Positions 2,408 to 41,157 of a stretch of 64,000 nt of DNA are shown here, one piece after another. The translations under genes were made by a program, and so were the position numbers. The notes under the pieces were generated by a model that did no database searches, was not told where the DNA came from, and saw nothing but the letters and a program-made list of their open reading frames with translations. The DNA comes from Candidatus Woesearchaeota archaeon. GTDB taxonomy: Archaea > Nanobdellota > Nanobdellia > Woesearchaeales > JAHWIC01. Numbering within the stretch: position 1 is the stretch's first letter; each line of letters starts with the position of its first letter. Location: NCBI GenBank assembly GCA_019322485.1, contig JAHWIK010000015.1:23216-87215 (forward strand). The letters run 5' to 3'.

Positions 2408-3421
2408 TTATCGTGACTTGTATGCCCCAGTAGCTTTTTCACCATTCATTCCGCTTCTCAACAGCAAATGGCCGTTGCAGCGGAAATCATAGTACCTATT
2501 AGCTACAGTCCTTAAGATTTCCATATCTATTAACAGGGCTTCAGCTTTTTTTCTTGCTGAATCTTCACCACCCAAGTGTTCACTCACATATTTTTCCATA
2601 AAATGGTCCATTGCAGAGAATGCTCCCTTTAAATAATCTGCTCTGATTCTGCCCCTTAAGGGAATTGCTCTGCTTAGGTTACTATCTACCTGAGCAATTG
2701 CTCCTCTAAATCCGCTAAATTCGTCTCGTTGTCCTTCGGGTTTTGCCCCCAGGACTTTATCCTTGTATATTGCATCTATGTGTCTGCTTACACTTTCTCT
2801 GTATATACCACTGATTATACCGCTAAAAACAGCCTCTACTTCAGCAGGTTCATTGCCATACTTACGCATTTCATAGACTCCTACTTTATCCCACAGCTTT
2901 CTTGTTACATTAGCAACCATCTGGATAGACCTATTTGCTTTTACAGTAGGATGGTCCATCTCCCCATCCATAATCAAACCAAAATCAGTGCCATAATTTT
3001 CATATGCATAGTTTGTTGTGAATATTCTCATAACTGTCCCTAAGACTACCTCAGCCAGTAACATCCTTCTTGCGGGATCTTTAACAGGCTCTTCTACAAC
3101 AGCTCTTTCACCAAGTGCATCTCTTTCAATTCTTATTGTCGGTTCTGGGTCTTCTTCAGGATGAATAGCTAAGTGGACTTTAGCTGCATATACTCTTAAT
3201 GTGTCTATATCAAGATCGTGTAAATAGAATTTTTCTTCACCTTCTTCATCTGTAAAACTACCTTCTGTTGCTTCTCTTACAGCTGCTTGGAACTTAGCTT
3301 CTAATTTAACAATATCACTAAGCTCCTTCCTACTGCTTTCTCTATTTGCTGGGCTTCCTTGCCCTGCTTTGTTTAGTTCTTGCGTCATTTTTCCATAACT
3401 GCGAGAAGTAATCTCGCGCAC
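2408..3421 (-). CDS. hypothetical protein (337 aa), possibly the third component of the ATPase/vWA module
   Basis: Long ORF with a plausible start after an AT-rich TATA-like upstream region. No motif I can assign. Confidence 0.4.
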   Translation of the reverse strand: MREITSRSYGKMTQELNKAGQGSPANRESSRKELSDIVKLEAKFQAAVREATEGSFTDEEGEEKFYLHDLDIDTLRVYAAKVHLAIHPEEDPEPTIRIERDALGERAVVEEPVKDPARRMLLAEVVLGTVMRIFTTNYAYENYGTDFGLIMDGEMDHPTVKANRSIQMVANVTRKLWDKVGVYEMRKYGNEPAEVEAVFSGIISGIYRESVSRHIDAIYKDKVLGAKPEGQRDEFSGFRGAIAQVDSNLSRAIPLRGRIRADYLKGAFSAMDHFMEKYVSEHLGGEDSARKKAEALLIDMEILRTVANRYYDFRCNGHLLLRSGMNGEKATGAYKSR

Positions 3422-3517
3422 AGTCTTTTCACTTATTGAGGTTTTTCATACATAATCTAGAAGATTATATAATTTATATAATACGGGAAAATTAGGTACT
3501 TTATAAACCTTTTGTTT

Positions 3518-4114
3518 CTATAGAGTAGAGATAATCCTTGTTAGTTTAATAACAACAGAAGCAACAATTGGCATTACTATGTTATCATCTACCCTGCGCA
3601 TTCCGAACTTTATTTCAATGCCTTCTGCAATCATGGCAAAGATAGCAGCAAAAAAGGCTTCTGCTGGCCTGACAAATATAACTGCAGCAAGAAAGCCGGT
3701 GATTATGCCCACTATTGCACCTTCAATGAACTTGGCGCTGTCCAACGGATGTTTTACCCTTCCAAAATGCACTCCAACAAACCTTGAAATTGGGTCAGCA
3801 ATTGCAAGGATTGCTATTGAAGCAAGAGCGATATCCTGCGGGAAAAGGAAGACTACAATAGTAATTCCAGTGATATAAAAGAATGCACCCTTTGCTGGAA
3901 ACTTTTTTATGTCTTTTTCACGGTCAAATTGCTGCAGAAACCAGTGCATAACAGGTATTCTATATCTTTTTGAAATTAATGACAGCGCTAAAAGAGCTAG
4001 GGTCAATGTTAACAACAGCCATTTTGTAAGAAATTCAAATTTTAGCAGTAATATGATTATTGTACCGCACGTAATGTGGAACAATCCCCTTCTAAATTCA
4101 AACTTGCTAGCCAT
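3518..4114 (-). CDS. polyprenol/dolichol kinase-like CTP-dependent membrane protein
   Basis: Six predicted TM helices. The C-terminal motif 'ADPISRFVGVHFGRVKH...SAKFIEGAIVG' resembles the dolichol-kinase/CarS-type 'GDxxASxIGxxxGxxK....K(S/T)xEG' signature. Confidence 0.45.
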   Translation of the reverse strand: MASKFEFRRGLFHITCGTIIILLLKFEFLTKWLLLTLTLALLALSLISKRYRIPVMHWFLQQFDREKDIKKFPAKGAFFYITGITIVVFLFPQDIALASIAILAIADPISRFVGVHFGRVKHPLDSAKFIEGAIVGIITGFLAAVIFVRPAEAFFAAIFAMIAEGIEIKFGMRRVDDNIVMPIVASVVIKLTRIISTL

Positions 4115-9910: not shown

Positions 9911-12505
9911 CTATTTAACATCCTTTACAGGACTTTCTCTAAAATCTTTAACACCGTCTCTTACAAGCTCAGCATACTTAACTGGATTCTGCATATAATC
10001 CTGGAGAACTGCTGCACGTCCTTGTTCTTCAACAAGTTTTAAGATGATAGGAACGCCTAAATAAAGATGGCTTTGATTCTCGCTAATCTCGCGGTCAATA
10101 GCTTTTTGCGATATGCCAAATCTCTCTTTGTTTTCTCTTATCCAGTGCCAGGCAAGGGCATGCACAATTGCTTCGTCTGTAATCTTGCTCATGTACTTAG
10201 CTTCTTCTAAATTCTCATATGTTATCTCATCTCCGTCTCTTGAAACTTTAATGAGACTTTCCATAATCTTCCCGCTGTAAGGACCGATTAGGCAATGCAG
10301 TGTCTCACAATACATTGAAAAGTGTGCCCCTCCTACGTCTTCTTCATGAGCTTTGACAAAGATATATTCAGGGTCTAGCTTGACCTTTCCGTCTTTAAGA
10401 TTGCCTGTTCCTCCTCCACGGCCTCCTTCTCCTGCATCTAAATCAAGTGGTGGCAGTTTATCTTTGCGACCATCTGCATGAACAGCATAGGTTTGTCCAA
10501 TTACTCTCCTCCCAACTTGATTTACAATATAGATTGGCATGGAATCTCCCTTAGTTTCAGCTAAATCATCAATACTTTGAACTGCCTTAAGATGAAAATT
10601 AGTTCTTAGACCAAGCTTATCATAATCTTCAACTACATGACCAAGTGCTTCTTGAAACATAGACGGTTCATACTTCTTCAATGGCTGAATATATGTTCTC
10701 GTCTTTAATGTCTCAAATGAAACCTCAGTCACATCACTAAAACGTCCTCTGTGTTTTGGATGCCTCAAACTTTTCCAGATCCAGTCTCTGACCTTTAGTA
10801 GCAGTCCATCTTCCCTTATAGAGTTTTCAAAATTTCCTTTAACAATCACACCTTCTTCAGGAATATAACGATAATCTCCAACTTTTTTTGCTTTTAGCCT
10901 CAACTGGACTCTTCCAGCCTGGATTCTATCTAAGCTTGTATATTCGAGAAGCAATTCAATACCTGCTCTTTGAGGGCTGTTCCTTGTATCTTCAAAAAGT
11001 TGATTTTTCATCTCCCTGTAATCGGCTAATGCAACGTCATAAGTAATACTGCTTACTTTTCTTCTTCCACTTACAATCATAAGTAAAGGATGTATAGAAC
11101 TATGGTATTCCTCGAGGAGTGCACCTAAGTCTCCATTACCTGGTTGCCACAAGGCATCGAATAAGGCTTTGATATGTTGTATCTCTTCTTCGCTCATATC
11201 CTTGATAATAGGCCAATCTAATTGCCTATGATGTTTAGTTGCCGCATGCACAGACTCATTATCAACAGCAGAAAGCAGGTCTTGTTCAGTTTGGAACCCA
11301 AACCCAAAAGCATGCTTGGTCACACATACAGTTGCTGGCTGTCCACTTGGCTGATTACGTTCAACGTACATAGCTGTCTTTCCACTAAACTTCTTAATCC
11401 CATCATTTTCTCGAGTATCATCTCCTACATACCTGAACTCTCTAATAGACTCAAATAGAGGATTCTCGTCTCCTAAATGCTCCAGCAATTCATCAAGATA
11501 CTGCTGCCTTAGATTCTCAGCAACTTTTGCTTCGTGGTAAGTAAGTAAGCGTTCTGGCGGGCCATCCTGTCCAGCCTTTGAAAGTCTTTTTCCTATGGCA
11601 CTTAAATGATGGGGAAGATTAAATCTTGTTTTTAGGGCGTCAACAACTCCTGGCCTTACTTCCTCCCAATTTCTTGCTTCCTCTAACTTGGAGAGATATT
11701 CAAGATGGGTTGTAAGTAAATGTTCGGCATATCTTAGAGATATTGTATCAGGCGGTATAAGCCCACCACTAGGGTCAATCTTGATATGTTTTCTAATCTG
11801 ATGCTCATAACAGTCAAGTTCCTCTACAATGTCAAGTAGTCTTGTTGAGAGCGTTCCTTCTGCAGTTAAGCAGTATTTAATCAAGTCATTCCGTCCTGAG
11901 GCATACTGTTTACCATGTCTGAATTCATGATCTCTTAGAGCACATATAAAATCAGCTGCAGTCTCCATACTGGATTTTTCAGTGCTAAATGCACGAGAAC
12001 TTATTTCAATTCTGCTATTCTTGCCCTCTACTTTTCCATCTATGAACCTTGAGTTCTCTGGAGTAAATGCCCTCATTGCTGCCCTAGTGTCCTTTTTGAA
12101 ATAATCTGAGTTTGGAGCATATTTCATACCCATAACATATTCAGGCAAACCAATCTGTTTCTTGACTAAATCAATAAAATGAGCTCTTCTGCCTTCATCC
12201 CTTTGAGCAAGCCTGAATTCCTTTTCTAAATCAACTTTTGCTTCCCTAACAATAGGTGGTTTTTCTGCTATTGGCCTAGAATCAACCGCAGGACTGCTTC
12301 TTGAGAGATACCAGCCAGCTAAACCAGCAACTATAGAAAATCCAGCTGCAGCAATTATTCCAGGAACAGCATAACTTCTTTGTTGCTGCGCCTCTTGAGC
12401 TGCTTGCTCAGCAGCTTCTCTTTCTGCAGCCTGCTTTTTTAGCCTTTCCTGCCTTTTGGTTAAACCCTTGTGTTTTTCTCTCTTCTTTCTGCTTTTTGAA
12501 CCCAT
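9911..12505 (-). CDS. large (864 aa) membrane-anchored protein with a conserved HExxH motif (putative zinc metallopeptidase-like ectodomain)
   Basis: N-terminus 'MGSKSRKKREKHKGLTKRQERLKKQA' followed by a TM helix; 'DHEFRHGKQY' aligns with 'DHEYRHVEIF' of the paralog. No other recognised domain. Confidence 0.5.
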   Translation of the reverse strand: MGSKSRKKREKHKGLTKRQERLKKQAAEREAAEQAAQEAQQQRSYAVPGIIAAAGFSIVAGLAGWYLSRSSPAVDSRPIAEKPPIVREAKVDLEKEFRLAQRDEGRRAHFIDLVKKQIGLPEYVMGMKYAPNSDYFKKDTRAAMRAFTPENSRFIDGKVEGKNSRIEISSRAFSTEKSSMETAADFICALRDHEFRHGKQYASGRNDLIKYCLTAEGTLSTRLLDIVEELDCYEHQIRKHIKIDPSGGLIPPDTISLRYAEHLLTTHLEYLSKLEEARNWEEVRPGVVDALKTRFNLPHHLSAIGKRLSKAGQDGPPERLLTYHEAKVAENLRQQYLDELLEHLGDENPLFESIREFRYVGDDTRENDGIKKFSGKTAMYVERNQPSGQPATVCVTKHAFGFGFQTEQDLLSAVDNESVHAATKHHRQLDWPIIKDMSEEEIQHIKALFDALWQPGNGDLGALLEEYHSSIHPLLMIVSGRRKVSSITYDVALADYREMKNQLFEDTRNSPQRAGIELLLEYTSLDRIQAGRVQLRLKAKKVGDYRYIPEEGVIVKGNFENSIREDGLLLKVRDWIWKSLRHPKHRGRFSDVTEVSFETLKTRTYIQPLKKYEPSMFQEALGHVVEDYDKLGLRTNFHLKAVQSIDDLAETKGDSMPIYIVNQVGRRVIGQTYAVHADGRKDKLPPLDLDAGEGGRGGGTGNLKDGKVKLDPEYIFVKAHEEDVGGAHFSMYCETLHCLIGPYSGKIMESLIKVSRDGDEITYENLEEAKYMSKITDEAIVHALAWHWIRENKERFGISQKAIDREISENQSHLYLGVPIILKLVEEQGRAAVLQDYMQNPVKYAELVRDGVKDFRESPVKDVK

Positions 12506-12661: not shown

Positions 12662-13294
12662 ATGTTTTACAAAGTTGAACTGAAAGACCACATAAGGGTG
12701 CCGCCTGATTTATTTGGCTTGCCTTTAGATGAAGCTGTGATAAAGAGGATAAAGACAAAGTACTCTGGGTTTATATCAAAGGACCTTGGTGTGGTTATTG
12801 ATGTTTCTGAAGTAGACAGCATAGGTGAAGGAATAATAGTGCCTGGTGATGGCGCTTCTTACTATGATGTTACATTCAAGCTTCTTACTTTTAGGCCGGA
12901 ATTGCAGGAAGTTGTTATGGGAAAGATAAGGGAAATAGCTGACTTTGGTGCTTTTATGACTCTAGGCCCAATAGACGGCATGATACACATTTCACAAACA
13001 ATGGATGATTTTGTAAGCTTTAGCAAGGATAAGACCCTGTCTGGAAAGGAAACAAAGAAATCCCTGAGTGTTAATGACGTTTGCAGGGGCAGGGTAATAG
13101 CTGTGTCCTATAAAGATCCAATGAATCCCAAGATTGGCCTGACAATGAGGCAAGGCGGCTTGGGAAGGCTTGACTGGATAGAAGCAGAGCATGAGAAGGA
13201 AGAAAAAGAAAAAGCTGAAGAAGAGCCTGAAGAAAAGAAAGGCAAGGAAAAGCCAAAAGAGAAGAAGAAGGCTAAAGGGAATAAGAAAAAATGA
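12662..13294 (+). CDS. rpoE: DNA-directed RNA polymerase subunit E' (Rpo7/Rpb7 homolog) with a Lys/Glu-rich C-terminal tail
   Basis: 'MFYKVELKDHIRVPPDLFG' N-terminus and an S1 domain, characteristic of Rpo7; followed by spt4, S24e and S27ae as in the conserved archaeal cluster. Confidence 0.85.
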   Translation: MFYKVELKDHIRVPPDLFGLPLDEAVIKRIKTKYSGFISKDLGVVIDVSEVDSIGEGIIVPGDGASYYDVTFKLLTFRPELQEVVMGKIREIADFGAFMTLGPIDGMIHISQTMDDFVSFSKDKTLSGKETKKSLSVNDVCRGRVIAVSYKDPMNPKIGLTMRQGGLGRLDWIEAEHEKEEKEKAEEEPEEKKGKEKPKEKKKAKGNKKK

Positions 13295-13341
13295 GCTTAG
13301 AAATCAAAGATTTCTGGCTCATTGAAATTCGGTGAATTTCA

Positions 13342-13527
13342 ATGAAGAAAAAGGTATGCAAGGAATGCAAGATATTTGTTGAAGGCAATGTATGTCCTGT
13401 TTGCAAAGGTAATCAGTTTTCTCCAAATTGGCAGGGTAGATTGCATATTCTTGACGCAGATAAGTCAATAGTAGCAAAGAAAGTAGGGCTAAAGGTACAC
13501 GGCGAGTATGCAATAAAGGTAAGGTGA
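13342..13527 (+). CDS. spt4: RNA polymerase subunit E'' / transcription elongation factor Spt4
   Basis: 61-aa Zn-ribbon 'CKECKIFVEGNVCPVCKG'; conserved position between rpoE and S24e. Confidence 0.75.
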   Translation: MKKKVCKECKIFVEGNVCPVCKGNQFSPNWQGRLHILDADKSIVAKKVGLKVHGEYAIKVR

Positions 13528-13531
13528 AACT

Positions 13532-13936
13532 ATGGATCTTAAGATTATTGAGAAGAAAGAACAACCTATGCTCTCTAGGATAGAGATAAAGGGAAAACTT
13601 GAGTTTCAGGGAGCAACCCCTTCAGCTAATGAGGTTAAAAAACAATTATCTTCAGAATTAAAGGTTGATGAAAAGCTTATTGCTGTTAAGAACATCTCCA
13701 CCTATTTTGGTGTTAACAATGCTGACTTAGTTGCTTATGCTTATCTTAACAAAGAAGATATGGACAAGGTAGAGCCAAAGCCAAAGGAAAAGGCTGGAGC
13801 AAAGCCTGCTGCTAAAGAAGCTCCTAAGGAAGCTGCTAAAGAGGCTCCTAAGGAAGCGCCAAAAGAAAAGCCTAAAGAAGAAGCTCCTAAAGAAAAGCCT
13901 AAAGAGGCACCAAAGGAAGAAAAGCCTAAGGAATAA
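13532..13936 (+). CDS. rps24e: 30S ribosomal protein S24e with a KEAP-repeat C-terminal tail
   Basis: 'KIIEKKEQPMLSRIEIKGKLEFQGATPS' matches the S24e N-terminal consensus; tail 'KEAPKEAAKEAPKEAPKEKPKEEAPKEKPKE'. Confidence 0.8.
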   Translation: MDLKIIEKKEQPMLSRIEIKGKLEFQGATPSANEVKKQLSSELKVDEKLIAVKNISTYFGVNNADLVAYAYLNKEDMDKVEPKPKEKAGAKPAAKEAPKEAAKEAPKEAPKEKPKEEAPKEKPKEAPKEEKPKE

Positions 13937-13938
13937 AA

Positions 13939-14160
13939 ATGGCAAAGAAAAAAGTAAAACCAAAGAGACCAAGCAAAAGATACTCATTATACGAGAAATC
14001 AGGAGAGAAGAAGAACAGGTTCTGCCCTAAGTGCGGCCCTGGAATTTTTATGGCAAAGCATAATGATAGAATAGTTTGCGGTACATGCCATTATACTGAA
14101 TTTATTAAGTCAGAAACACCAGCTGATAAAAAAGCAGATAAACCAGCTGAGAAAAAATAA
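13939..14160 (+). CDS. rps27ae: 30S ribosomal protein S27ae
   Basis: C4 zinc-ribbon 'CPKCGPGIFMAKHNDRIVCGTCHYTEF', typical of S27ae. Confidence 0.8.
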   Translation: MAKKKVKPKRPSKRYSLYEKSGEKKNRFCPKCGPGIFMAKHNDRIVCGTCHYTEFIKSETPADKKADKPAEKK

Positions 14161-15431: not shown

Positions 15432-17414
15432 CTACCTCCTTAAAGTACCTTTCTTGACAAGATCTTTAGCTAATTTCTCTACATCCTTACTTTCTGTTTT
15501 TTGTTTTCTTTCTGCTAATTCTTGAGCAGTAGGAACGTCACCTTTAAATTCTGCTTTTCCCTTATTTTCAGCCAATTCCTGGATACTAGGGACATCACCA
15601 GGCTCTTTTTCCTTCTTTTCTGCCAGTTCATGAGCAGAAGGGACATCCACCCTTGGCTTAAGCTTTCCTTTTTGTTTGGTTAACTCTTGAATACTAGGAA
15701 CATGAATTCTAGGCTTTGGTTCAGGTTTTGGAGGTTCTTTCTTTACTTCTTCTATTAATTTTTCTGCAGTTGGTTCTGTTCCTTGGGCAAACTGTGTTGC
15801 CTGCTCAACCATCTTTGCTGTTTTGTCTTCTGTTTTGATTGCCTTTTCAACCTGCTTTTCCTCTTTTTTAATCTCTTTTTCTAAAACCTCAGCTGCCTTT
15901 TCAATCTCTTCTTTTTTCTCCGGCTCTTTAATCTCTTCTTTCTTTGCTTCTTTTTTAATCTCTTTTATCGTTTCTTCGGCTTCTTTCTTGACCTCTTTTA
16001 TTTCAGCCTCTTTCTTTGGGAAAGCTGTTCCCATCACTTCAGGTTTTTGTGGCTCTTGTATGACTCTCTTCTCTTCTACCTTCTTTGCTATCTGCTCGTC
16101 TACCTGTATCTCTTTTTCAACCTGCTTCTCTTCCTTTTCAACCTCTTTCTTCAGCTCTTTTGCTTCTTCAGGCTTGATTTCTTCTTTTTTTGCCAGTCCA
16201 TCAATCTCTTCCTTTATCTCCTTTGCCTCTTGCTTTAGCTCTTTGATTACTTCTTCCTTTTTTTCCTCGGTTGGCTTCTCTTCTGGCTTTGGTTCTTCTT
16301 TTTTCTCCACTACTGGCATCTCTTTCTTTACTTCAACTTCTGTTGGTGGTTTTACCTCAACAGCCTTTTCCTCAACCTTAGGTTCAGGTTTCGGCTCTTC
16401 TTTTTTCTCTTCAGCCTTAGGCTTTTCTTCTGCTTTCGGCTCTTCCTTAGGTTTTTCCTCTGCCTTTGGAGGTTCTGGCTTAGGCTCTTCAGCAGGTTTC
16501 TCTTCAGGCTTCTTTTCCTCAGCCTTAGGCTCTTCTTTTTTCTCTTCAGCCTTTTCTGCTGTTTCAATGTTTGCACTTGATTTTAAGCCAAGCATTCCTC
16601 TTTCAGCCTTTGCCAGTAAATCATCAATAATCCCTTTATCAATAATACCTTCAGATAATCCTAAAGCCTTTGCCTCTCTGAATGCTTTTGCAAGCAATGG
16701 TTCAATAGTGGTTTTTGTTGGATAGCCAACATAAATAGCAACATTAAATGCACCGGATGCAGCTGCTCTCAAGTCAGCGTTGAATTTGTCTTCATCAATA
16801 GCAAGAACATCCTTTCCGAAGATTACCCCGTTTTCATATGTTGCAGTAAGGTCCAGGCCAACTTCCATTGGCTGTATATTGAATCTTATCAGCAACTCAG
16901 CTACTTTTGGCTTTATCTTCTCTCCTTCCTTAACAACAACAGAATCCTCTTTTACTGCTACTTTTCCGCCCTCAACACCGCATTTTATCCCTACTGCACC
17001 AAGTTCACCGATTATTGGTCCTGGCATGAATGATGTAGGGCCAGCAGGTATAACAATATCCTTTGGAGAGGTCTGTCCTGGCTTTGCAGGAGCAGTACTC
17101 TTGCTTTTTTGCAGTGTTTTGTATAATTTGAAAGGATTTTCATTTGTGAATAATAAAGCAGGCATTCCTTTTAGGTGAGGCACTAATTGTTCAATTCCTG
17201 GCTTCTTTTCTTTTGCATTCTCAATCGCTATCTTCATTATTCTCCTTTTTGTCATGAACATAGTGACCTTATCTCTTAACTGCTGCTTCATCTTCTGCAG
17301 CTGCGGAGCTGGAAGATTCTCCATATTAACAGCTCCAACAATAGGATACTTACTAATTAAATCAACAATCTCCTTTACAATCTTCTTCTTTTTGTCTGAT
17401 ACGTGAGCTTTCAT
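15432..17414 (-). CDS. rpl10: 50S ribosomal stalk protein P0 (L10e) with a ~330-aa K/E/P-rich low-complexity extension
   Basis: N-terminal ~280 aa match the P0/L10 family ('[42 protein letters not shown]'). It is in the conserved L1-L10-L12 order. 660 aa against the usual ~340 aa. Confidence 0.8.
15554..16544 (-). repeat. low-complexity coding repeat region ([10 protein letters not shown] / EVKKEAEE units, then 4x 'DVPS[IA][QH]ELAE') inside the P0 gene
   Basis: Visible periodicity of gaa/aag/cct codons on the minus strand; the antisense S/F-rich ORF 15823..16725 is an artefact of this. Confidence 0.6.
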
Positions 17415-18256
17415 TTTTTAGCTTCACTCTTTGGAGCTTCCTTAGGCGTTTCGGCCTTAGGCTCTTCTTTTTTCTCTTCAGCCTTGGGTTCTTTTTGAGA
17501 AGTCTCCGACTTCTCTAAACCTTTCTCACTTTCGTTCGAAAGCTCTTTAGGAGCTTCCTTTGCAGGCTTTGGCTTCTTTCCCTTCTTTGCTTCTTCTTCT
17601 GTCTTTTCTCCTATCTTGACCACAGGACCCATGCTGAGCTTTAAGCAGACATTCTTCACATTATTCTTTCCGTCTGGCAGGTGGTGTATGACCTGGTCAT
17701 AGATAGACATTATGTTATCTATGACTTCATCGTCTTTCATATCCTCTTTTCCCGCTAAACATCTTACAACAGGATCATTAATTGTTCTTAATCTTATAGT
17801 TCTCTTTAGCTTTTCAGCTAATGGCTTTAGGTTTGCATTTGGCGGAACAACACACCCTGCTTTTGGGTTTGGCATCTTTCCTTTTGGGCCGAATACCCGG
17901 CCAAAAGATGTTGCTATCTTTGGCATGATTGTTGCCTGTGCTATGAAATAATCATAAGAGTTAGCCAGTTTCTTTACTATTTTCTTGTCCTTGTATTTTG
18001 GGAAATTATCAACAAGAACTGCTTCATCGCAGTTAGCTTTGGCGCTTTCACTTAGTTCAGGACCAATCAAAGCGCAGATTTTAGCCTGCTTCCCGCTTGG
18101 ATGGCTTAACTGCATGAAGAAATCAACCTTCTCTTCAGATTTCTTTAAGTTAATATGTTTTAGATTAATGATTAGGTCAACACTCTGTTTAAAATTCCTT
18201 TTAGTAGAAGTTTGCTTTACTCTCTTTAATGCTTCTGTTACTTGATTCTTATCCAT
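17411..18256 (-). CDS. rpl1: 50S ribosomal protein L1 with a K/E/P-rich C-terminal tail
   Basis: 'MDKNQVTEALKRVKQTSTKRNFKQSVDLIINLK' and overall L1 family similarity; overlaps the P0 start by 4 nt. Confidence 0.85.
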   Translation of the reverse strand: MDKNQVTEALKRVKQTSTKRNFKQSVDLIINLKHINLKKSEEKVDFFMQLSHPSGKQAKICALIGPELSESAKANCDEAVLVDNFPKYKDKKIVKKLANSYDYFIAQATIMPKIATSFGRVFGPKGKMPNPKAGCVVPPNANLKPLAEKLKRTIRLRTINDPVVRCLAGKEDMKDDEVIDNIMSIYDQVIHHLPDGKNNVKNVCLKLSMGPVVKIGEKTEEEAKKGKKPKPAKEAPKELSNESEKGLEKSETSQKEPKAEEKKEEPKAETPKEAPKSEAKK

Positions 18257-18348: not shown

Positions 18349-19614
18349 TTAATTTATCCAGCCTAATTCTTTAGCAGTTTGTTGGCAAATTACAATCTGG
18401 TTTAGATTGGCACCCTGTCCTCCTCCATCCTCAGACAACACGATACCACCACACATTAAACATGCCTTATTTTGAGGATATAAAGGTTCTTTATTGGGCT
18501 CAGGAATTCCTTCTGGTATGTTGCAGCAGGACATGTAGGGTCCCCTTGGACAAGGTGCTGTATATTTGTCCTTTACAAAAGAAAGACCACTAAAATAACC
18601 AAGATTATGAGCATTTTCATGTATAAATGTTTCCAACTTTTCATCTCGATACGCGGATGAAGTTTCGAGTGAAATGTAAATGTTTGGGAAAGGGGCAAAA
18701 CTTAAGAAACCTTGATAACCACCATTTTGATGGAAGTCATTTAAAAAAATTATCGTGATACTGTCATAATGACTTATATTGATTTTCTGTTTTTTAATTT
18801 CTTTATCAAAAAAATCTACTATATCTTGATTTGACCCTGTGCGCCTTCCTCTTTGTGGAGGATCTTCTTCCAGCTTATATGGTCCAAAAATTGAAACATT
18901 AAAGATGTCATTATCATAGCTATAGCCATACCTTGCTGCTTCTTTCTTGAAAAAGTCATTTATATAAAACAAAGAGTGGGGTCCTGGGCTTCTGGTTGGT
19001 ACCGACTCGTCTGCTGTTACCTCGAGACCAAAATATCCATTAGGATTATTCAATACTTCTAAGAATGAAAAAGATTTATCTTCAATATCACAGTTCAATT
19101 GGCCGTTTGTCCAAAAACATTCTCTTTCGCCACTTAAATAATGTGTTCTGCAACAATAATAAGCTCTGCCATATTCAAAATCATCCTTAGCTTTAAATTC
19201 AATAACTGCAATTTTAATTGGCCTTCTTAATGACCCTTTTATACATTTGCCACCCTCACAAACAGAAAGCCCAGAACATTTATCTTGACATGATTTTATA
19301 CAAGCTCCATCTCTACAACCGTTTTCGCATTCATAAGGTTCAATTCTTATTCTATTGTTGCTGCAATAGTACTCATAAAGAGTATTGTTATTTCTGCATC
19401 TATCGGTATATATCCTTGTTATGCTTTTGTTCAGCCTAAACCAAGTCTTATAGGTATAACTTACACTTCCTTTTGTAAAATAATTTTGGCCGTCACTATC
19501 TGAACAGGATTCAGAACTTAACCAAAAAAATCCTCCGGTAAAATCTTTTATTTCTGCTAAATATACGGCTAGGAGGAGTAAGACAACCACAAGGATAATT
19601 GTTGACTTTTTCAT
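18349..19614 (-). CDS. secreted Cys-rich protein with an HExxH motif (putative zinc metallopeptidase)
   Basis: Signal/anchor 'MKKSTIILVVVLLLLAVYLA'; many Cys; 'IHENAHNLGYFSGLSF' zincin-like motif near the C-terminus. Confidence 0.5.
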   Translation of the reverse strand: MKKSTIILVVVLLLLAVYLAEIKDFTGGFFWLSSESCSDSDGQNYFTKGSVSYTYKTWFRLNKSITRIYTDRCRNNNTLYEYYCSNNRIRIEPYECENGCRDGACIKSCQDKCSGLSVCEGGKCIKGSLRRPIKIAVIEFKAKDDFEYGRAYYCCRTHYLSGERECFWTNGQLNCDIEDKSFSFLEVLNNPNGYFGLEVTADESVPTRSPGPHSLFYINDFFKKEAARYGYSYDNDIFNVSIFGPYKLEEDPPQRGRRTGSNQDIVDFFDKEIKKQKINISHYDSITIIFLNDFHQNGGYQGFLSFAPFPNIYISLETSSAYRDEKLETFIHENAHNLGYFSGLSFVKDKYTAPCPRGPYMSCCNIPEGIPEPNKEPLYPQNKACLMCGGIVLSEDGGGQGANLNQIVICQQTAKELGWIN

Positions 19615-20388: not shown

Positions 20389-20739
20389 TTACCTTATCTC
20401 AACTTCACAGGTCTTCTTCGGCTCAACAGAAGCCTTTAGGACTCTTATTGTAAGTCCAAGAGCGCTTCTCTCTGTTCCTGTTGTTATGGTCAGGGTTTCT
20501 TCATCAACCCTTATCCTGCAGAAGGTTTCCTGCGGGCTGACATCAACAAGGATAAGATTTCTGCCTTCATGCTCAGTGATAAATCCTTTTCTAAGCACTA
20601 CAACAGGTTCTGGCTCAGGCTCTTTCTCTACTGCTGCTTCTTCTTCAGCTGCAGCCTCTGGTTCAGGAGCTTCCTCCTCAACAGGCTTAGCGCAGCCAAT
20701 AAGCAAAAACAAGATAAGAACTGAAATTATCTTTTTCAT
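20389..20739 (-). CDS. small lipoprotein-like secreted protein; paralog A (shared ~60-aa C-terminal two-Cys domain)
   Basis: 'MKKIISVLILFLLIGCAKP' lipobox-like signal, acidic/Pro-rich linker, C-terminal domain alignable to 20744..21232. Confidence 0.4.
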   Translation of the reverse strand: MKKIISVLILFLLIGCAKPVEEEAPEPEAAAEEEAAVEKEPEPEPVVVLRKGFITEHEGRNLILVDVSPQETFCRIRVDEETLTITTGTERSALGLTIRVLKASVEPKKTCEVEIR

Positions 20740-20743
20740 ATTA

Positions 20744-21232
20744 TCACCTCAACATAACTCTGCATGTTTCATCAGGGCTAAGGGATGGTTCAAGCACTTC
20801 TATGGTAATGCCCTGGATGCTTCTTGACTTTCCTTTGGTTATCAATATGCTCTCGCCATCTACCCTGAACGAGCAGTATGTTTTTTTTGGGCTTACATGG
20901 CTTAGAATAACATCCTTGCCCCTGAATTGAGTAACAATCCCAATTTCAAGCACTGTGCCAGGTTTTGGCGGCTCAGGCTCTGCCTCAACCTCTTCTATTT
21001 CCTCAACAACAGGCTCAAATTTAGGCTCTTCTTTTTTTCTTTCTGGTATTAACTCCTTGATGTTGCTTCTTACATCTTCGATAGAAATAAACTGCGATAG
21101 GTCTGGTCCAGCTAGAAACAGAAAAGCGAGAAGAAGCACAACCACAATAGCTATGTTAATCATGCGCGCCTTTCTTTGCTTCTCTAATTCATCTATGTCC
21201 TGTATTAACTTGGTTTCTGTTGTTTTCTTCAT
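20744..21232 (-). CDS. membrane-anchored/secreted protein; paralog B of the preceding gene
   Basis: TM helix, acidic/Pro-rich linker, and a C-terminal domain aligning with paralog A. Confidence 0.4.
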   Translation of the reverse strand: MKKTTETKLIQDIDELEKQRKARMINIAIVVVLLLAFLFLAGPDLSQFISIEDVRSNIKELIPERKKEEPKFEPVVEEIEEVEAEPEPPKPGTVLEIGIVTQFRGKDVILSHVSPKKTYCSFRVDGESILITKGKSRSIQGITIEVLEPSLSPDETCRVMLR

Positions 21233-24484: not shown

Positions 24485-24838
24485 TTAGTCTTTTGTGATT
24501 AGCTCATCAGCCTCAATATAAGGCTTTGTTCCTGCAAAAGGAATCTCACCATAACGGATTGTCCCCCTTACAACATAATCAACCTCATACTCAAATGTTT
24601 GCTGCGCTACTGCTTTCTTTACATAAAGATAAGGGCCACCGCTTACCTTAGCCCATTCCCGCTTTGCTGTTCCATCTATGATGCCCCTTATCTCAACTTC
24701 CATGCCTTCATACTTTTCAGGATTATCATTTATTGCTTTAATCAATGCACCATCACTTGCTTTTCTTACAATAATCTCATAGCCACCAAACTGGCAGCCG
24801 CATAAAAAAATTAAAAATAAAACTAATAGTTTTTTCAT
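24485..24838 (-). CDS. small secreted/lipoprotein-like protein (117 aa), last gene of the giant-protein operon
   Basis: 'MKKLLVLFLIFLCGCQFGG' signal; start overlaps the stop of the upstream gene by 4 nt. Confidence 0.4.
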   Translation of the reverse strand: MKKLLVLFLIFLCGCQFGGYEIIVRKASDGALIKAINDNPEKYEGMEVEIRGIIDGTAKREWAKVSGGPYLYVKKAVAQQTFEYEVDYVVRGTIRYGEIPFAGTKPYIEADELITKD

Positions 24839-26016
24839 TTTTTCTTCCTCTTTTTAGGCTTTAGTTTCTTTATCATTATTATCAATGCTGCAGCTATAAT
24901 AGCTAAGGCAACTGCCACATACAACAATGGAGATACCTTTCTTTCTGCTTCGTGCAGCTCTATTGTAAACTCCCTTTCAAAGGTTTTATCTTTATAGTAA
25001 GCCTTTGCCTTTAGTTCATAAGATCCAAGCTCCAGCTCATGCGCTTCCCAATGAAGCCTTACAGAGCTGTTCCTGTTTGGTTCGATATCAATCCTGTTTG
25101 CTTCCATAGCTGCAATTACTGTGCCATTCCTGATAATATCTGCAGTCAGGTTAACATCCTCAAGCTCTTTATTCCAGTTTGACCCTAAGAACATATTTAT
25201 CCTGTTGATTTTATCAACAACAGCAGTTCTTGTTCCTAAGAAAATCAGCACCCCTTCTTCACCAATCCTAAAACTTCCAGTTTCTTCTACTGCTTTTCCG
25301 GAAAACTTAATGATTGATTCTGCATCATACTCACCAGGCTTGAACAGGAACTTCTTTATGGTTAATTGGTTTTCATGACTTTTTCCAGGCTCAATAGTAA
25401 ATGTTGCTTTTGGCAGGGATAGTATCTTCTTCTCTGTATTTCCCAGAATCTTATAACCAAGCACTACATCATGGAATCCATTTACAAGTGCAGCTTTGTA
25501 CAGGCTTGCAACTTTCTCTTTATTCTCATATATGTTAAGGTCATTCTCTATTCCTCCAATTGTTATTGCGCCTTTGTTTTCCATTACTGTTGTAAATTTC
25601 ATAAGATATTGGCTGTCATCAATAACCAAAAGCTCTGTTTTAAGGTATTCCTCAGGATACGGAACAAATAAATTAACCGTATGATGTACTGATGGCTTTG
25701 TTGTTACTGTTCCTGAACCTGCTGGTTCTTCATATACAACTATCTTAGCCTGATGCTCGCCAGGCCCGAAAGGCCCTGATAGGTTAAAGCTGAATTCTTT
25801 TGGGCCTATTACAACCCCTTCACGCGCAATCTCCACGTCAAGCTCACCTTCAACACCAATTGTAATCCTTGTTGGAAGGTTTGATGAAGGTATAACTGTA
25901 AAAACACCTGAATGCTCTTTATTCCCAAAGAAATCTGTCTTTGCGGGCATTGCCCCTAAAGCAAACACAGCGTCTATTGAAAGCACCAATATAATAAATA
26001 AAATCCATTTTTTCAT
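24835..26016 (-). CDS. secreted protein with an N-terminal signal peptide and a C-terminal TM anchor plus KKRKKK tail (393 aa)
   Basis: Signal 'MKKWILFIILVLSIDAVFALG'; C-terminal 'PLLYVAVALAIIAAALIIMIKKLKPKKRKKK'; start overlaps the giant gene's stop. Confidence 0.45.
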   Translation of the reverse strand: MKKWILFIILVLSIDAVFALGAMPAKTDFFGNKEHSGVFTVIPSSNLPTRITIGVEGELDVEIAREGVVIGPKEFSFNLSGPFGPGEHQAKIVVYEEPAGSGTVTTKPSVHHTVNLFVPYPEEYLKTELLVIDDSQYLMKFTTVMENKGAITIGGIENDLNIYENKEKVASLYKAALVNGFHDVVLGYKILGNTEKKILSLPKATFTIEPGKSHENQLTIKKFLFKPGEYDAESIIKFSGKAVEETGSFRIGEEGVLIFLGTRTAVVDKINRINMFLGSNWNKELEDVNLTADIIRNGTVIAAMEANRIDIEPNRNSSVRLHWEAHELELGSYELKAKAYYKDKTFEREFTIELHEAERKVSPLLYVAVALAIIAAALIIMIKKLKPKKRKKK

Positions 26017-29000
26017 GTTGTTCTCACCAATATAGTTGAATTCTTCTGCCCCGAGGGCTCAAGCAACGGCACAGTTGCGTTCAAATCAATCTCTGCTGTG
26101 TCTGAGGCATCTTCCCAGTTTAGATTATATATTGCCGGCGTGCTGTTTGAAGGCATTGGAGTTAATGTTGTCGTTGCTGAAGTGAATGAGCCGGATTCAT
26201 TCACGCCTATTGCGAATTGATATGACTCATTTGGATTAGGCACTGTCTCAAACAAGTCAGTTGCATTTATTGATATGTTGACAATTAAATTGCCTACATT
26301 TTCCAATAGGAGCGGCAGTGGGCTGTCATCTTCTGTGGATTCACTAAAGCCAGGTATTACCACCCCAAAGTCAACTACATCCCTTGTCAGGTTTATTGCT
26401 ATGTATGAGCTTAATGTAAAGTTCCATACATCGCTCCATTCTCCTGAGATAATGGAGTGATAAGCCCTTACTCTCCAGAAATATGTCTTGTCAAGCTCGA
26501 GGTCGCTTATTAGTGTGTGGCTGGTTTCATTATTGCTTCCTTCTGATAGATTTCCTCTTGAGTAATCTAATGATGTAAAGATTGGCGAATCATCTATCTC
26601 TATCTCGTATTTTGCAGTTGTTGAGCCATTGTAGGTTGCATTGTACCAAGTGAATGTTGGCCTTAGCTCTGTTGTGGTGTTTCCGCTTTCCGGGCTTTTG
26701 AGGATAACCTTTGACGGCCTGTTGGCTTCTTCTCTTTCACATGCGTCTTTGCATGTGTAGCCATTGTATGTCTGGGTATAATCACAGACCCATATGTTCT
26801 CTTTGCTGTTTCCATTGCTCCAAGGCAGTTCTCCTGATACTGTTCTTGTGTCATTGTCATCTCTTAACTCAACCTCAACAGTATAGTATCCTTCACTCAA
26901 GCCGCTTAAACTGACTGTGCCATTGCACATTCCTGTTGATGCAAGCGGAACACTTCCGAGAGATATCCTGCTGCCAGGGCTGTTCTTTTCTGCATAAACA
27001 ACACAGCCAGAGGCATTAGCAGTAAATCCATAAGTGCTTGTGAAATTAACTGCTACATTCAGTGTTTCTGTTGGCACGTAATAATCCTTTGTTGGGTATG
27101 AAGTACTGCAGTTTGTGTCTATGCAGAAGAATCCTGTTGTTTGTTTTGGCAAGGTTCTTACATCAATGGTCAGGCTTGTGTTTGGACCAATATTGCCGAC
27201 ACCATCAACTGCCCTTGCATAGATTGTATTTAAGCCGTCAGATAATGTGAGGGCATACCTGCAGTCATAAGCTGATGTTTCATTTACCCATCCAGTGCCG
27301 TCATTAAACTGGCAAAGTTCAACGCCGGAATTCCATGTGCCAGAGTCAGTTGCATTTACTCTTACATAAACAGTGTCTGAGGCGCTTAATCTGGTAACTG
27401 TATTGTCTGTTTTTATCATTCTTAGCCTGGAGGTTGTGTAATCATCATCTGCAGGAGTTGTTTTTACAAATACTGGTGCTTGCGGCGGCTCTGTTTCAAG
27501 GATGTACTGCGTAACATCTGCATTTTGCTCTACTCCGCCTATACTTGTTGAGACATAATACGAGAAACTCGAGTTTTGTACAATTGTGTCATTATCAGGG
27601 ACAGTTATCCAGAATGTTAGGTTTAAAATCTGGTTTGGATATGCTCCGCTGTATTCTATAAGGACAGCCTGGTAATGATATCCTGATTGAGCACTGTACT
27701 GCACATTGAAATTACCAGAGTCTGTTCCATAGATTCCAGAGTTTGATGCATTCATCTCATAATCTAATGGCACATAGGTTGCGCTTGCACTTCCAAGATA
27801 AATCTGGATTGTTTTTCCGTTTACATTTGTGGCTGAGTCTGTGAATGTGAATGTAAGGTTTTTTCCTCTCCAATGATATTCTGTGTATGTCAGGTCAGGT
27901 GTTCCGCCGCCCCAGTTTGTGTTTACTGAGTAATCTGGGGGCTCTCCGCCTATGTAGCTGACTGCTGCTGCATCAGAGCATTTTAGCGTGCATGCTGCTA
28001 AACTATTTGTATACGGGGCCAGGCATGAAGCACCTGATGAACAATCTGAGTCTTCGCAGTCAACTGAATTGTCAAAATCATTGTCATAGCTGTCTGTGCA
28101 TGCTGATTCTGTTGTTCTATACCCTGTTCCTGCACTAGCCGAGTTGCAGATTCCTTGGCTTGTAGACCACACACCAACGATTCCATCACAGTCTGAATCC
28201 CTGCAGTCATAAACACCATCATTAAGGCTGGCGTTTATCTCATTAGGGTCATAATTTGTCTTTGAGATGTATTCATCTTGGTATTCATACTCATTGTTTA
28301 AGCCATCCATGCACGAATCTAGCGTTACATTCTCTTCTGGAGGACAGACCCTGCATAATCCTTGATGATAACATCCTGTATCATAACAGTTTGCAAGATT
28401 ATCGCCATCATTATCCATTGAGTAAGCTGTTGTTCCGCTTGAATTATAATCACCGCAAAGAGTATCATCAAAAGGATCAAAGTACATCTCTTCAAATAAT
28501 GCACATAAAATATCTCCTGGGCCCAGCAGGCCATTGCAGTCAGGGTCGCCACAATCTGTTCCTGAAGCATCATTTGTCTCGTATTCTGTTCCATTCCATG
28601 TGTAGGCATCTAGGTCATTGTCTAATGTGTCATTGCAGGTCTGCTCTACTATTGATAATCCTGAGCCGTCATCTGTACAGACATACAGGCCAGATTCCTG
28701 CACAGCATAGCAGTTATAATCATCACAATCTTCACCTGTATTTGCACCGGCATGTGCGCTTCCTGACTCTCCAACATAATAGGTTCCTAGGTCTTGGTCA
28801 TTGTCAACTCCATCAGAACAGTTGTATTCCCATCTTATTGTGCATAAGCCGATATTTCCTGAGTCATTTATGTAAGTGTTATTGCAGTCAGAGTCATAAT
28901 TATTCCATGCACAGTCAATTCCTGCTCCAGCTGCAGTACTTAGATTAATACCATCTGACAAATAATTATCAAGGTCATTGTCAATGCTGTCAAGGCACCA

Positions 29001-32000
29001 GTTTTGTGTGCTGTTGCAGCCAGTTGGTGAGCATGTATAGTTTTCCCGGCCAGGGCAGGCAGAATTGTTATAACAGCTGTAATCATTGCAGTCACCATCT
29101 TGCAGGTAGGTGTTTGCTCCAAAGTGGTATTGATATGATGCATTTGTCCATCCAGGGTTCTGCATCTGGCTGATGTAATAATCCTGGTCATTATCAAAAA
29201 CATCTGTACAGTTTCTTTCAATAATTAATTCACAGTTTTGTCCTGACGGGCCGATAGCTGTATCATTGCAGTCTTGGTCATATCTATAGCTGTCATAAGC
29301 AATAGCATACGGCCAGAATTGGTTTGGAGTGAGACCATATGCATAATAGATGCAGTCTATTCCGCCTGATAGGTTTTCCACTCTGTTTGAATCTAATAAA
29401 TAATCAGTTATGTTGTAGACATACCTGTCTAGGTCATTGTCAACTCCATCAGTGCACAATGATGCTGTTTCTGTTGTAGGGCATGCAGAGTCATTTGCAC
29501 AGTCATAATCATCACAATCATAGCCGCCAGAGGCGCTTGTCCTATTCCCGCCAGGATTGTATGCATTATCTAAGTCATTGTCATAACCATCTGTACAGTT
29601 TATCTCGTGGCCTAGCTCACATTTTCCAGGACCCATATCAACACCATCACAGTCTGCATCAGGGTAGTGGTTTCCATCATAGTTATATCTGCAGTCCATT
29701 CCACCGCCATACTGGTTGTTTGTTGCACTATATTGTGTTCCTGTCCAGCCGGTTATTGTATAATAATCAAGGTCATTATCCTTGTTGTCAGAACAGTTTG
29801 CTCCATCATTTTCCCAATAGTTTGTTACATTGCATGTTGATTGGCAGTCATACTCTCCATGTGCAATGTTGCTTCCACCTGCACCATATTGATAATTTGG
29901 GTTTGTTGTTGAGGCTCCTGTTGAGGTCGTATTGCAGTCAAGTTCCCCATCCTGGTCATTATCAAATCCATCTGAGCAGCTTGTTTCAAAGATTAATTGG
30001 CATGTTCCTGCTGGCAATACAGAACTATTGCAGTCTATATCATACTCTACCATCCTGCAGTCAGCTCCTGCTCCTGGCAAGCCCGAGTAAAAGTCTAGGT
30101 CATTGTCCTTTCCGTCAATGCATGTTATTCCTGACTCATTTATGGGACAGTTTGAATCATTGAAACAATCATATTCTCCATGAGGATAAGTTCCTCCACC
30201 AGAATAGGTTGACCTGGGGTTAGTTGGATTGCTTAAGTACTGGATTACCCCGCCTGTAAAGAATGCTGTTGTGTTGCAGTCAAATGCTCTGTCACGGTCA
30301 TTATCAAACAAGTCATTACATATTGTTTCTACCCCTAATTCGCATGTGCCATTGATTCCTCCAACATTATAGCTGAGCCAGCTTGAGTTTAGGATGTATG
30401 TGTTGTTGCAGTCAGTGTCCCATGTACCTGCATTATAATGGCAGTCTGTATCACCATCATCGTCATTGTCAAAGCCGTCTGTGCAGGAGTTATTTGTTGC
30501 AGCATATTTGCTTTCATTCTGGTAAGCGCATAAAGGATAGGTTCCGTCAGGGTTTGCCGATGTTGAACCAATATAAGCGTCGCAATCAATGTCAATACAG
30601 TCTGTTGTATAATCCAAGTCATTGTCATATGAGTCTGCACAAGATATATCATGTTCATCTCTTACGCCGTCATCTGAAATATTTATGTTAAATTTAAAGT
30701 CATATGCTGAACCATTAAATATCCTGTTCAAGACTAAGCCATACATTCCATAGAAGTTGTTTGTTGTATTCATCATTGCTTTTAGGACATTATCTAATGT
30801 GCTTTGGGTGTAAGGTGTTGGGTCAGAAGGAGGATTTGGGCCAGACTGGGCAATTATTGAGTTAGCACTTGTTGTTTTTCCGCTTAGACCGGTTGTTGCG
30901 GAGTAGTTTAATATCCAGAAATCACCAGGGTTTTCCTGCCATAATGATGTATTGAACTGCCACACCTTGAAATAAGCTGTATAGCCTGTTATTTGCGAGG
31001 TTTGATACAGCCTCATACTAAACAATGCTTCTGGCTGTATCTTGTATGTGTAAGTGACTGCTGTGTTCGATGCTGTTCCAGTGCATAAGTTTGGTGCGCA
31101 TGAAGCATCACAGGTTCCACCGTCTATGCATTGAAGTGACCCATCTAAATCACCTGGGTCATATGGCGGGTCATCTCTCCAGCCAGCTGCTGTTTTGTTG
31201 CAAGTCCATGCAGGAGTGCCCTGCTTGTTTGTATTAGAGCCCCCTACAATATAATATTCTCCGTAGACAATTGAAGCGCAGTCTGAATCCTCACAATCTA
31301 TTTTACCATCTCCATCATCATCTGCATTATTAGCACAGTGCGTCTCCACAACGTCAGGGGTATTCTTTTTCTTTATTGAGAAGTCAACGTCTTTTGCACC
31401 ATAATAATATGATGAGTCTGCGGGATTATAGAAAACACTTGAACAGGTGTTGTTTTCAAGGAAGTAGTTTGAGTTATCTACGCCGGCTGCACAGTTTGCT
31501 GCCCTGGTCACATAACCTACATACCATGCATAGTTGAGGGCAGCTTTACCCTCGTAGAAAGCAAGTTGCACTGTTCCGTTTAATCTTCTGCCAGATGTTA
31601 CAGGTATTGTGCATGTCCTGTGGCATTCTTCACCAACAGGGCATGTTGAATCCTCAGAGTTATTGACATTAGTCACTGTATTGCTTTGGCTTATTGTATA
31701 GGATATAGAGTAATTATTTCCTGCTGTGTTGGTAACTGTTTCTGCTCCATCTGCATAGTTCGAGTCCATGCAGGAGAAATTAGCTTTTAGGTTTTCGATT
31801 ATTCCTTCTCCGATTACTGTCAGATTTATTACTGAACCATCTTCGTAGAACACCCTTCTCCTGTAATTATTTGAGGTATCTGCCACTCTCAACAGGAAGA
31901 ATCCTACTGTTCCTGATGAGCTAGCTCCTCCTGTTATTTCTGTAATAGATGATAACTCTTTTCCATCAGGGATTATGAAGAAGTTTAGTGAACTGACAAG

Positions 32001-39453: not shown

Positions 39454-39474
39454 TGAAAATCAAAGATTTTCAGT

Positions 39475-41153: not shown

Positions 41154-41157
41154 GATT

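Follow-up and report, generated by a model that had tools for sequence, protein, structure and literature searches.

In the archaeal ribosomal stalk of Pyrococcus horikoshii and Pyrococcus furiosus, the anchor protein P0 (uL10; aP0 in its canonical archaeal form) and P1 (aP1) form an aP0(aP1)2(aP1)2(aP1)2 heptamer. Canonical aP0 ends in a hinge of about 40 amino acids (aa) followed by a tail homologous to that of aP1; this tail is normally the seventh factor-binding one of the stalk, and its presence on both P0 and P1, which gives seven identical sites, has been described as general among archaeal stalks (PMC7768734). Here, we describe a P0 gene that departs from this plan. It lies in a 64,000-nucleotide stretch of DNA from Candidatus Woesearchaeota archaeon (GenBank assembly GCA_019322485.1, contig JAHWIK010000015.1, positions 23,216 to 87,215 of the forward strand), referred to as the window, and its product carries, beyond an intact core, a 376-residue C-terminal arm that stands in place of the canonical hinge and tail. 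An earlier note on the window, made from the sequence alone, had drawn attention to this protein and to charged tails on L1, S24e, and Rpo7. A search of the accessible literature found no description of stalk or uL10 peculiarities in DPANN archaea or Woesearchaeota.

Results

The P0 core and the replacement of its C terminus

The P0 gene (15432..17414, minus strand) encodes 660 aa, and the solved archaeal P0s among the PDB matches have 339 to 348 aa, which bears out the earlier note's comparison of 660 aa with a typical length of about 340 aa. The core of the protein, residues 1 to 284 (16563..17414, minus strand), as delimited by Pfam, PDB alignment, and AlphaFold2 (AF2), consists of the L10 rRNA-binding domain, the P0 insertion domain, and three spine helices. 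Pfam assigned residues 6 to 104 to Ribosomal_L10 (PF00466; E = 1.9e-23) and residues 110 to 180 to RL10P_insert (PF17777, the P0 insertion domain or domain II; E = 2.9e-17). The PDB match to Pyrococcus P0 (E = 8e-74) spans residues 3 to 330, with the conserved part stopping at about residue 280; Pyrococcus P0 (4v6u_Bk, 339 aa; 3a1y_G) can be aligned with the window P0 only from residue 3 to about residue 280, and the alignment with 3a1y_G reaches residue 279 of the 284 of that chain, covering the P1-dimer-binding spine. The AF2 model of the full-length protein, built on 58 homologues, places the spine helices at residues 208 to 229, 237 to 254, and 260 to 281, where P1 binding is predicted; its predicted local distance difference test (pLDDT) values are mostly above 90 up to about residue 220 and lie between 72 and 84 across the spine helices.

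No GLGALFG-type tail is present in any frame near the end of P0, which terminates in KKGTLRR. The adjoining P1 gene (15107..15427, minus strand) encodes a stalk protein of 106 aa (PF00428, Ribosomal_60s; E = 4.5e-15) with a canonical hinge and a GLGALFG-type tail. The earlier note was therefore right that P0 lacks the usual stalk ending, and wrong to call the additional residues an insertion: by the alignment with Pyrococcus P0, which ends at about residue 280, they are a C-terminal replacement of hinge and tail. The window P0 clearly shows four of the five features that define uL10/P0, the missing fifth being the tail shared with P1. The protein is a true uL10/P0, from a DPANN archaeon of the Woesearchaeota type, with the rRNA-binding core and three predicted P1-binding helices intact.

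Anatomy of the C-terminal arm

The 376 residues beyond residue 284 have no counterpart in the Pyrococcus P0 structures. This arm contains 24% Lys, 27% Glu, and 10% Pro and is a near-neutral polyampholyte with a net charge of -13 and a fraction of charged residues (FCR) of 0.54. In the AF2 model it consists, in order, of a disordered stretch (residues 285 to 381), two helical regions (383 to 452 and 468 to 543), a short helix (550 to 559), a second disordered stretch harboring the VPS peptides described below (560 to 626), and a terminal helix (630 to 655).

Residues 285 to 381 (16272..16562, minus strand) form a Pro/Glu/Lys polyampholyte spacer with a net charge of -8, predicted to be disordered (pLDDT below 50), and are the least conserved part of the arm among close relatives. 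They are followed by two E/K-rich helical units, copy 1 at residues 382 to 460 (16035..16271, minus strand; AF2 helices at 383 to 452) and copy 2 at residues 466 to 545 (15780..16019, minus strand; AF2 helix at 468 to 543), the latter running into motif A; the helices have an ER/K-like composition and pLDDT values of about 60 to 90. The two blocks are evidently an old internal duplication, with a local alignment score of 165 versus 89 +/- 8.5 in shuffles and 73% identity at the DNA level (repeat D6). Motif A, at residues 526 to 560 (15735..15839, minus strand), was defined from alignments A1 and A3 and follows the clade consensus TDxKVAxMVxKTKKFxxGxxP(S/T)AxxLxEE, in which V40 and A54 (numbering of alignment A3) are invariant. 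Next come four VPSxxEL peptides (residues 571 to 583, 590 to 600, 607 to 617, and 626 to 636; 15507..15704, minus strand), each predicted to form a short helix on flexible linkers; their DNA constitutes repeat family D2, with 65 to 77% identity and a spacing of 51 to 57 nucleotides (nt). The arm closes with the conserved terminal motif, residues 641 to 660 (15435..15494, minus strand), which was delimited from a logo of 84 sequences and occupies the place of the canonical stalk tail. The model confidence of the terminal helix is high (pLDDT of 81 to 90 in the full-length model and of 81 to 93 overall), and this helix was again confidently predicted when residues 497 to 660 were modelled alone, a run that yielded short helices on linkers without a compact fold (predicted template modelling score [pTM] of 0.22). 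Tandem Repeats Finder detected no clean tandem array in the DNA of the arm, and no long exact repeat is present.

The four DVPS-type repeats reported earlier are thus found again, at residues 571 to 636, and the accompanying description of about 330 aa of charged repeats holds in part: there is a K/E/P-rich arm, of 376 aa, in which only about 97 aa are of the proline-rich EEPKPE type, some 164 aa are proline-poor E/K helices, and the remainder includes conserved islands. On the opposite strand, an S/F-rich open reading frame (ORF) of 300 aa (15823-16725, plus strand) runs antisense to the arm; it mirrors the K/E-rich coding sequence and is almost certainly not a gene.

Distribution among relatives

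Two sets of relatives were compared with the window P0, namely, the 120 best database homologues of the protein (363 to 661 aa) and the best 80 loci from a scan of one genome per GTDB species, which hold 79 complete P0s. The homologues belong to Woesearchaeota or Nanoarchaeota wherever they are named, and all 80 loci come from Woesearchaeota, Nanoarchaeota, or Nanoarchaeia metagenome-assembled genomes (MAGs), some of which bear an apparent placeholder title, "Methanosarcinales," and one the title "Aminicenantes." The canonical tail is absent from all 121 sequences comprising the window P0 and its 120 best homologues and was found in frame in 3 of the 79 complete P0s. A KGTLR-type motif occurs in 94 and a VPS-type motif in 92 of the 121 sequences, the window P0 being counted, and VPS and/or GTLR motifs occur in 46 of the 79 complete P0s (about 60%, by a strict pattern). 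Nineteen of these 79 are short; 17 are truly tail-less, and two (L032 and L072) are frameshift splits. In L032 (positions 3230-4020), a MAG whose name suggests roughly 8x coverage, an A10 homopolymer interrupts the reading frame, beyond which the arm with its VPS motif is found in another frame; in L072, AGLGALFG and a stop codon follow out of frame in the intergenic region downstream of the short P0. The earlier view of the extension as lineage specific agrees with the taxonomy of the 80 loci and with the lack of the canonical tail in the 120 homologues. Its proposed use as a taxonomic marker stands insofar as the motifs occur in 46 of 79 species representatives and is limited by their patchiness, with 17 tail-less and three canonical P0s.

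The extensions of the 120 homologues comprise 71 to 375 aa, of which 39 to 70% are K, E, or P. In the alignments, motif A, the VPS(A/I)(H/Q)(E/D)L peptides (one to four per P0), and the terminal motif stand out as conserved islands amid unalignable spacers. The closest relatives, at 66 to 78% identity, share the architecture of the window P0 and differ in unit numbers: the P0 of the sister species L001 has three helical units and 718 aa, versus two units in the window P0, and close relatives have one or two VPS peptides, versus four here. In a rough neighbor-joining tree of the cores, which is suggestive only, P0s with the canonical tail form one group, and the VPS/GTLR types fall into a large clade within which losses are scattered. 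Two side observations concern other arms. The P0s of L001 and P0001 have cores that appear identical by eye in the alignment and yet differ by a 102-aa helical repeat unit (718 versus 616 aa), which reflects either strain polymorphism or repeat collapse in one assembly. The arms of P0016, P0033, P0036, P0041, and P0055 contain a further conserved island, EDIYEEESREELTAEGEISPAEEGFMEGYEEAGK, that is not present in the window P0.

Conservation and specificity of the terminal motif

The terminal consensus reads K-E-Q-K-E-V-E-(D/E)-L-(A/T)-K-E-L-(I/V/L)-K-K-G-T-L-R-K. Counted from the conserved arginine (R0), L-7, G-3, and L-1 are kept in all 84 sequences and L-11 and R0 in 83, and a 17-aa motif is nearly invariant in sequences that otherwise have no alignable spacer. 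A 36-position profile of the terminal module gave 33 matches at E<=1e-3 among 1.84 billion representative proteins, all of them C-terminal, and those inspected were P0s, P0 fragments, or chimeras. No copy was found in the rest of the window, and among 6,735 ORFs of the 80 related loci none lies outside P0 except in the L032 split. By these searches, the module is P0 specific.

Neither Pfam (at E<=10) nor a PDB profile search matched the module significantly to a known domain. Weak PDB matches to the N terminus of CHIP suggest only that PSAxEL commonly starts helices. A helix-extension-helix of the SAP, HeH, or Rho_N kind was considered for VExLAKELxKKG and found no support, there being no Pfam hit at E<=10, no significant PDB hit, and only isolated helices in the model of residues 497 to 660.

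A portable module that also occurs on other proteins was likewise rejected. The candidate, P0134, in which an RPA OB-fold precedes the module, is a chimera on a 1.1-kb contig of 1.4x coverage: the tail is missing from all 119 of its homologues, and the point of divergence from the closest one is exactly a K/E-rich stretch. It belongs to a set of public gene calls in which unrelated N termini precede a Woesearchaeal P0 tail (L081 [ENA ERZ5996431 NODE_167767], P0134, P0135, P0139, P0140, and P0144), the N termini being an RPA OB-fold, an Fmt-like fragment, a protein-kinase fragment, a putative BCCP-like fragment, and antisense P0. P0134/L081 is a chimera, and the remaining four appear to be chimeric contigs joined at K/E-rich low-complexity sequence.

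Selection on the arm and soundness of the assembly

Between the window P0 and that of L001, the ratio of nonsynonymous to synonymous substitution rates (dN/dS) was about 0.09 in the core and 0.12 in the helices, 0.19 over the arm, and 0.20 at the C terminus; the values are rough, given a biased composition and a dS close to saturation. The proportion of nonsynonymous differences (pN) was clearly below that of synonymous differences (pS) in the arm. By these measures, the arm is under purifying selection.

The architecture of core, arm, and terminal motif recurs in more than 100 independent assemblies, which, together with the divergence of the internal repeats, makes mis-assembly or gene fusion very unlikely. 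Two ways in which the extension might dissolve had been raised at the outset, a collapsed repeat and a separate gene. Repeats that are 65 to 77% identical at the DNA level speak against a collapse artefact, and a separate gene is ruled out, the sole split case, L032, being a frameshift at the homopolymer.

Operon layout and the Shine-Dalgarno overlap

The last 4 nt of L1, which include its stop, are also the first 4 nt of P0, and 4 nt separate the P0 stop from the start of P1. The order L1-P0-P1 is kept at 78 of the 80 related loci, and P1 has a GLG(A/S)LFG-type end at 76 of 78. The last codons of P0, AGG AGG (Arg-Arg; window 15432-15440), double as the Shine-Dalgarno sequence GGAGG of P1 with a 4-nt spacer, which accounts for RR instead of RK at the end of the window P0; L001 and L002 show the same overlap. 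In the majority of the related loci, a separate GGAGG(T) precedes the ATG of P1 at a short distance, after an intergenic region of 12 to 385 nt. The idea that GTLR(K/R) is conserved as a by-product of this signal was discarded, since the overlap is confined to the window, L001, and L002 and KKGTLRK is kept where the P0-P1 spacer measures 20 to 330 nt and has its own GGAGG. At L030 (positions ~10900-12000), a 1107-nt insert separates P0 from P1 and holds an ORF with LAGLIDADG-like sequence (LIAHLIGDGSV...).

Charged tails on other proteins

The K/E/P tails that the earlier note described on L1, S24e, and Rpo7 are all present in the ORFs, and S27ae has a short one as well. L1 (17411..18256, minus strand; 281 aa, with the Pfam L1 domain at residues 15 to 211) carries a K/E/P tail of 70 aa at residues 212 to 281 (17414..17623, minus strand), compared with a median of 14 aa and a range of 3 to 80 aa in 78 relatives. 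In S24e (13532..13936, plus strand; ORF and Pfam), the tail starts at about residue 84; this K/E/A/P tail (residues 84 to 134; 13781..13933, plus strand) is encoded by a 12-nt (APKE) minisatellite and measures about 44 to 51 aa, depending on the core end chosen, against a median of about 20 aa and a range of 4 to 118 aa in relatives. Rpo7/RpoE (12662..13294, plus strand; ORF and Pfam) has a K/E tail from about residue 176 (residues 176 to 210; 13187..13291, plus strand) of 25 to 35 aa, the median of 54 relatives being 12 aa and their maximum 25 aa. The short K/A/D/P tail of S27ae spans residues 56 to 73 (14104..14157, plus strand). Long tails on L1, S24e, and Rpo7 recur in L001 and in some other lineages, and no conserved motif was seen in the tails of these three proteins, which are lineage-variable low-complexity appendages; the S27ae tail, too, varies greatly in length among relatives.

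Among the 60 putative genes of the window, K/E/P/A-rich runs are found only in Rpo7, S24e, P1, P0, and L1; a genome-wide K/E/P bias was rejected as an explanation, the runs being absent from the other 55. The charged tails have FCR values of 0.54 to 0.77 and are predicted to be disordered or single helices, and those other than the P0 arm have a net charge of +2 to +3.

Other genes of the window

The plus strand carries Rpo7, Spt4, S24e, and S27ae at 12662-14160; next comes, on the minus strand, a gene for a DUF7121 coiled-coil protein. Upstream of L1, where L11 is often found, a gene at 18349-19614 (minus strand) encodes a Cys-rich protein of 421 aa that has no Pfam match; its N-terminal part includes a hydrophobic segment, and it contains an HExxH motif (HENAHNLG). 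Two adjacent genes at 20389-20739 and 20744-21232 (both minus strand) encode small paralogous proteins. Both have a hydrophobic N terminus and an acidic linker rich in Pro and Glu, and their C-terminal domains, which contain Cys, resemble each other (VDVSPQETFCRIRVDEE and SHVSPKKTYCSFRVDGE, respectively); the second has no Pfam match. ORFs of 2016 aa (26013-32063, minus strand) and 864 aa (9911-12505, minus strand), neither with a Pfam match at E<=1e-5, are probably cell-surface proteins, as are the products of the neighboring gene 24835-26016, with a WxL-interacting host-binding domain, and of 54977-57130, with Big_9/PKD/cadherin-like repeats.

A bacterial-type cluster for the methylerythritol phosphate (MEP)/deoxyxylulose phosphate (DOXP) pathway at 33997-42246 (plus strand) comprises Dxs, IspG (GcpE), a protein with a phosphoenolpyruvate-utiliser domain, an IspD-IspF fusion, an IspE-like GHMP kinase, IspH (LytB), and a polyprenyl synthetase. 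No Dxr was recognised among its genes, and an odd protein of 461 aa is encoded at 36920-38305. The MEP pathway has been reported for a monophyletic clade of Woesearchaeota (PMC8204110), and the gene content of the window, this cluster included, is typical of Woesearchaeota.

Discussion

The window P0 has lost the hinge and factor-binding tail of its canonical counterparts and has a 376-residue arm in their place. One of the seven stalk arms seems to have been re-purposed, a reading to which we give about an even chance. Since P1 keeps GLGALFG and P0 does not, GTPase recruitment would rest on six P1 copies instead of seven arms, and the 17 tail-less P0s imply that the seventh copy of the tail is dispensable in this clade. 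Variable spacers, invariant short motifs, and a best-conserved motif always at the extreme C terminus together make up the pattern expected of a tether that presents docking peptides. In such an arrangement, the spacer and helices would act as a long flexible tether, with a contour length of perhaps several ribosome diameters, and would present the conserved peptides for docking close to the GTPase-associated center; the partner would be lineage specific, or the peptides might dock back onto the ribosome. The spacers may grow and shrink by slippage and duplication, like the tails of L1, S24e, and S27ae, and one stalk arm would have been neofunctionalised. We tentatively propose, as a possibility and not as the expected outcome, that the VPSxxEL peptides and the terminal VExLAKELxKKGTLRK helix constitute an undescribed stalk docking module. 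In much of the Woesearchaeota, the P0 arm would then have changed its specificity, recruiting a different, lineage-specific factor to the GTPase-associated center or latching onto another site on the ribosome or onto a neighboring ribosome, with the six P1 arms keeping the GTPases.

Several points weigh against a re-purposed arm. The docking role is inferred from the sequence pattern, the ORF is read from an assembled contig, and the dN/dS values are rough for the reasons given. The arm is dispensable in the clade, as the 17 related species with tail-less P0s show, and its length is hypervariable, ranging from 71 to 433 aa across homologues and related loci. Moreover, arm length correlates with the lengths of the L1, S24e, and S27ae tails (rho of 0.28 to 0.40, weak and uncorrected for phylogeny), which fits a general propensity for low-complexity expansion.

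The same points nourish the main rival explanation, i.e., that growth of the arm was mostly neutral: with six P1 tails sufficing, the P0 tail would have become dispensable, the hinge would have drifted and expanded by slippage and duplication, and the islands would reflect constraints on helix formation or solubility only. The tail-less P0s, the range of arm lengths, the difference in unit copy number between the near-identical strains L001 and P0001, the minisatellite in the S24e tail, and the correlation of tail lengths can all be read in this way. It is less easily reconciled with a 17-aa terminal motif that is nearly invariant in 84 sequences and always sits at the extreme C terminus, whatever the intergenic distance, with the conservation of motif A, and with a pN far below pS in the arm, and we consider it somewhat unlikely. 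The earlier note's characterisation of the extension as low complexity is too narrow, given three conserved islands, a near-invariant P0-specific terminal motif, and purifying selection.

The earlier note itself had suggested that the extensions are RNA/ribosome-surface elements or disordered entropic bristles. On this view, with S27ae included, the tails on P0, L1, S24e, S27ae, and Rpo7 would bind RNA or the ribosome surface or would keep protruding stalk elements soluble and apart. L1, P0/P1, and Rpo7 are peripheral proteins that belong to protruding stalk elements, and it speaks for such a role that the tails in the window sit only on translation or transcription proteins, are highly charged, and are predicted to be disordered or single helices; the last residues of P0, KKGTLRR, are basic as well. 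However, the near-neutral polyampholyte character of the arm, with its net charge of -13, speaks against general RNA binding, and the other tails are about neutral too, unlike RNA-binding polycations. No RNA-binding domain was found by Pfam at E<=10, a bristle would have no need of an invariant P0-specific terminal motif, and most relatives have only short tails on L1 and S24e. Altogether, this explanation strikes us as improbable. An artefact, in which the long ORF would stem from faulty assembly, from contigs joined wrongly within K/E-rich sequence, from expanded repeats, or from an overlooked frameshift fusing P0 to another gene, is brought to mind by the public chimeric contigs, by the L032 arm split off at its A10 run, and by the repeat unit that separates L001 from P0001, but is highly improbable in view of an architecture shared by more than 100 independent assemblies, window repeats that are diverged and include no long exact repeat, coding constraint throughout the arm, and tight, intact L1-P0-P1 junctions.

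Within this DPANN clade, the P0 copy of the tail can be lost outright, giving tail-less P0s, or replaced by a much longer arm with a different and strongly conserved terminal peptide. If the peptide indeed has a partner of its own, the ribosome would bear two classes of stalk arm; to our knowledge, there is no earlier natural case of stalk arms of two specificities on one ribosome. Such a partner would also give a means of approaching translation in symbionts that are uncultured and have reduced genomes. On the practical side, the terminal motif is of use in recognising a sub-clade of Woesearchaeota, and metagenome assemblies are especially prone to chimeric or frameshifted gene calls at the K/E-rich arms.

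Compared with canonical aP0 of Pyrococcus (PDB 3A1Y and 4V6U), the window P0 has the same L10 domain, insertion domain, and three spine helices and the same L1-P0-P1 gene order, and differs in its last 376 aa, which close with another motif, basic and amphipathic, and form an arm about seven times longer than the normal hinge and tail. Eukaryotic P0 and the bacterial bL10/bL12 stalks resemble it in having an anchor protein whose flexible arms terminate in a short, conserved element for interaction; in those stalks, however, all arms carry one element, whereas the arm of the window P0 differs from those of P1. The EP/KP region of TonB, the PEVK region of titin, and ER/K single alpha-helices serve as extended spacers or tethers. 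Residues 285 to 381 (EEPKPEPPK...) are similar to the former two in composition only, with no sequence homology detected, and residues 382 to 545, with their E/K-rich predicted isolated helices, are similar to ER/K helices, again in composition only. Low-complexity tails rich in lysine are also known from other proteins that associate with nucleic acids. The PAKKA repeats of mycobacterial Ku (PMC3553676), for instance, form a lineage-specific, repeat-generated charged C-terminal tail on a conserved core; they are strongly basic and DNA binding, whereas the tails in the window are near-neutral polyampholytes.

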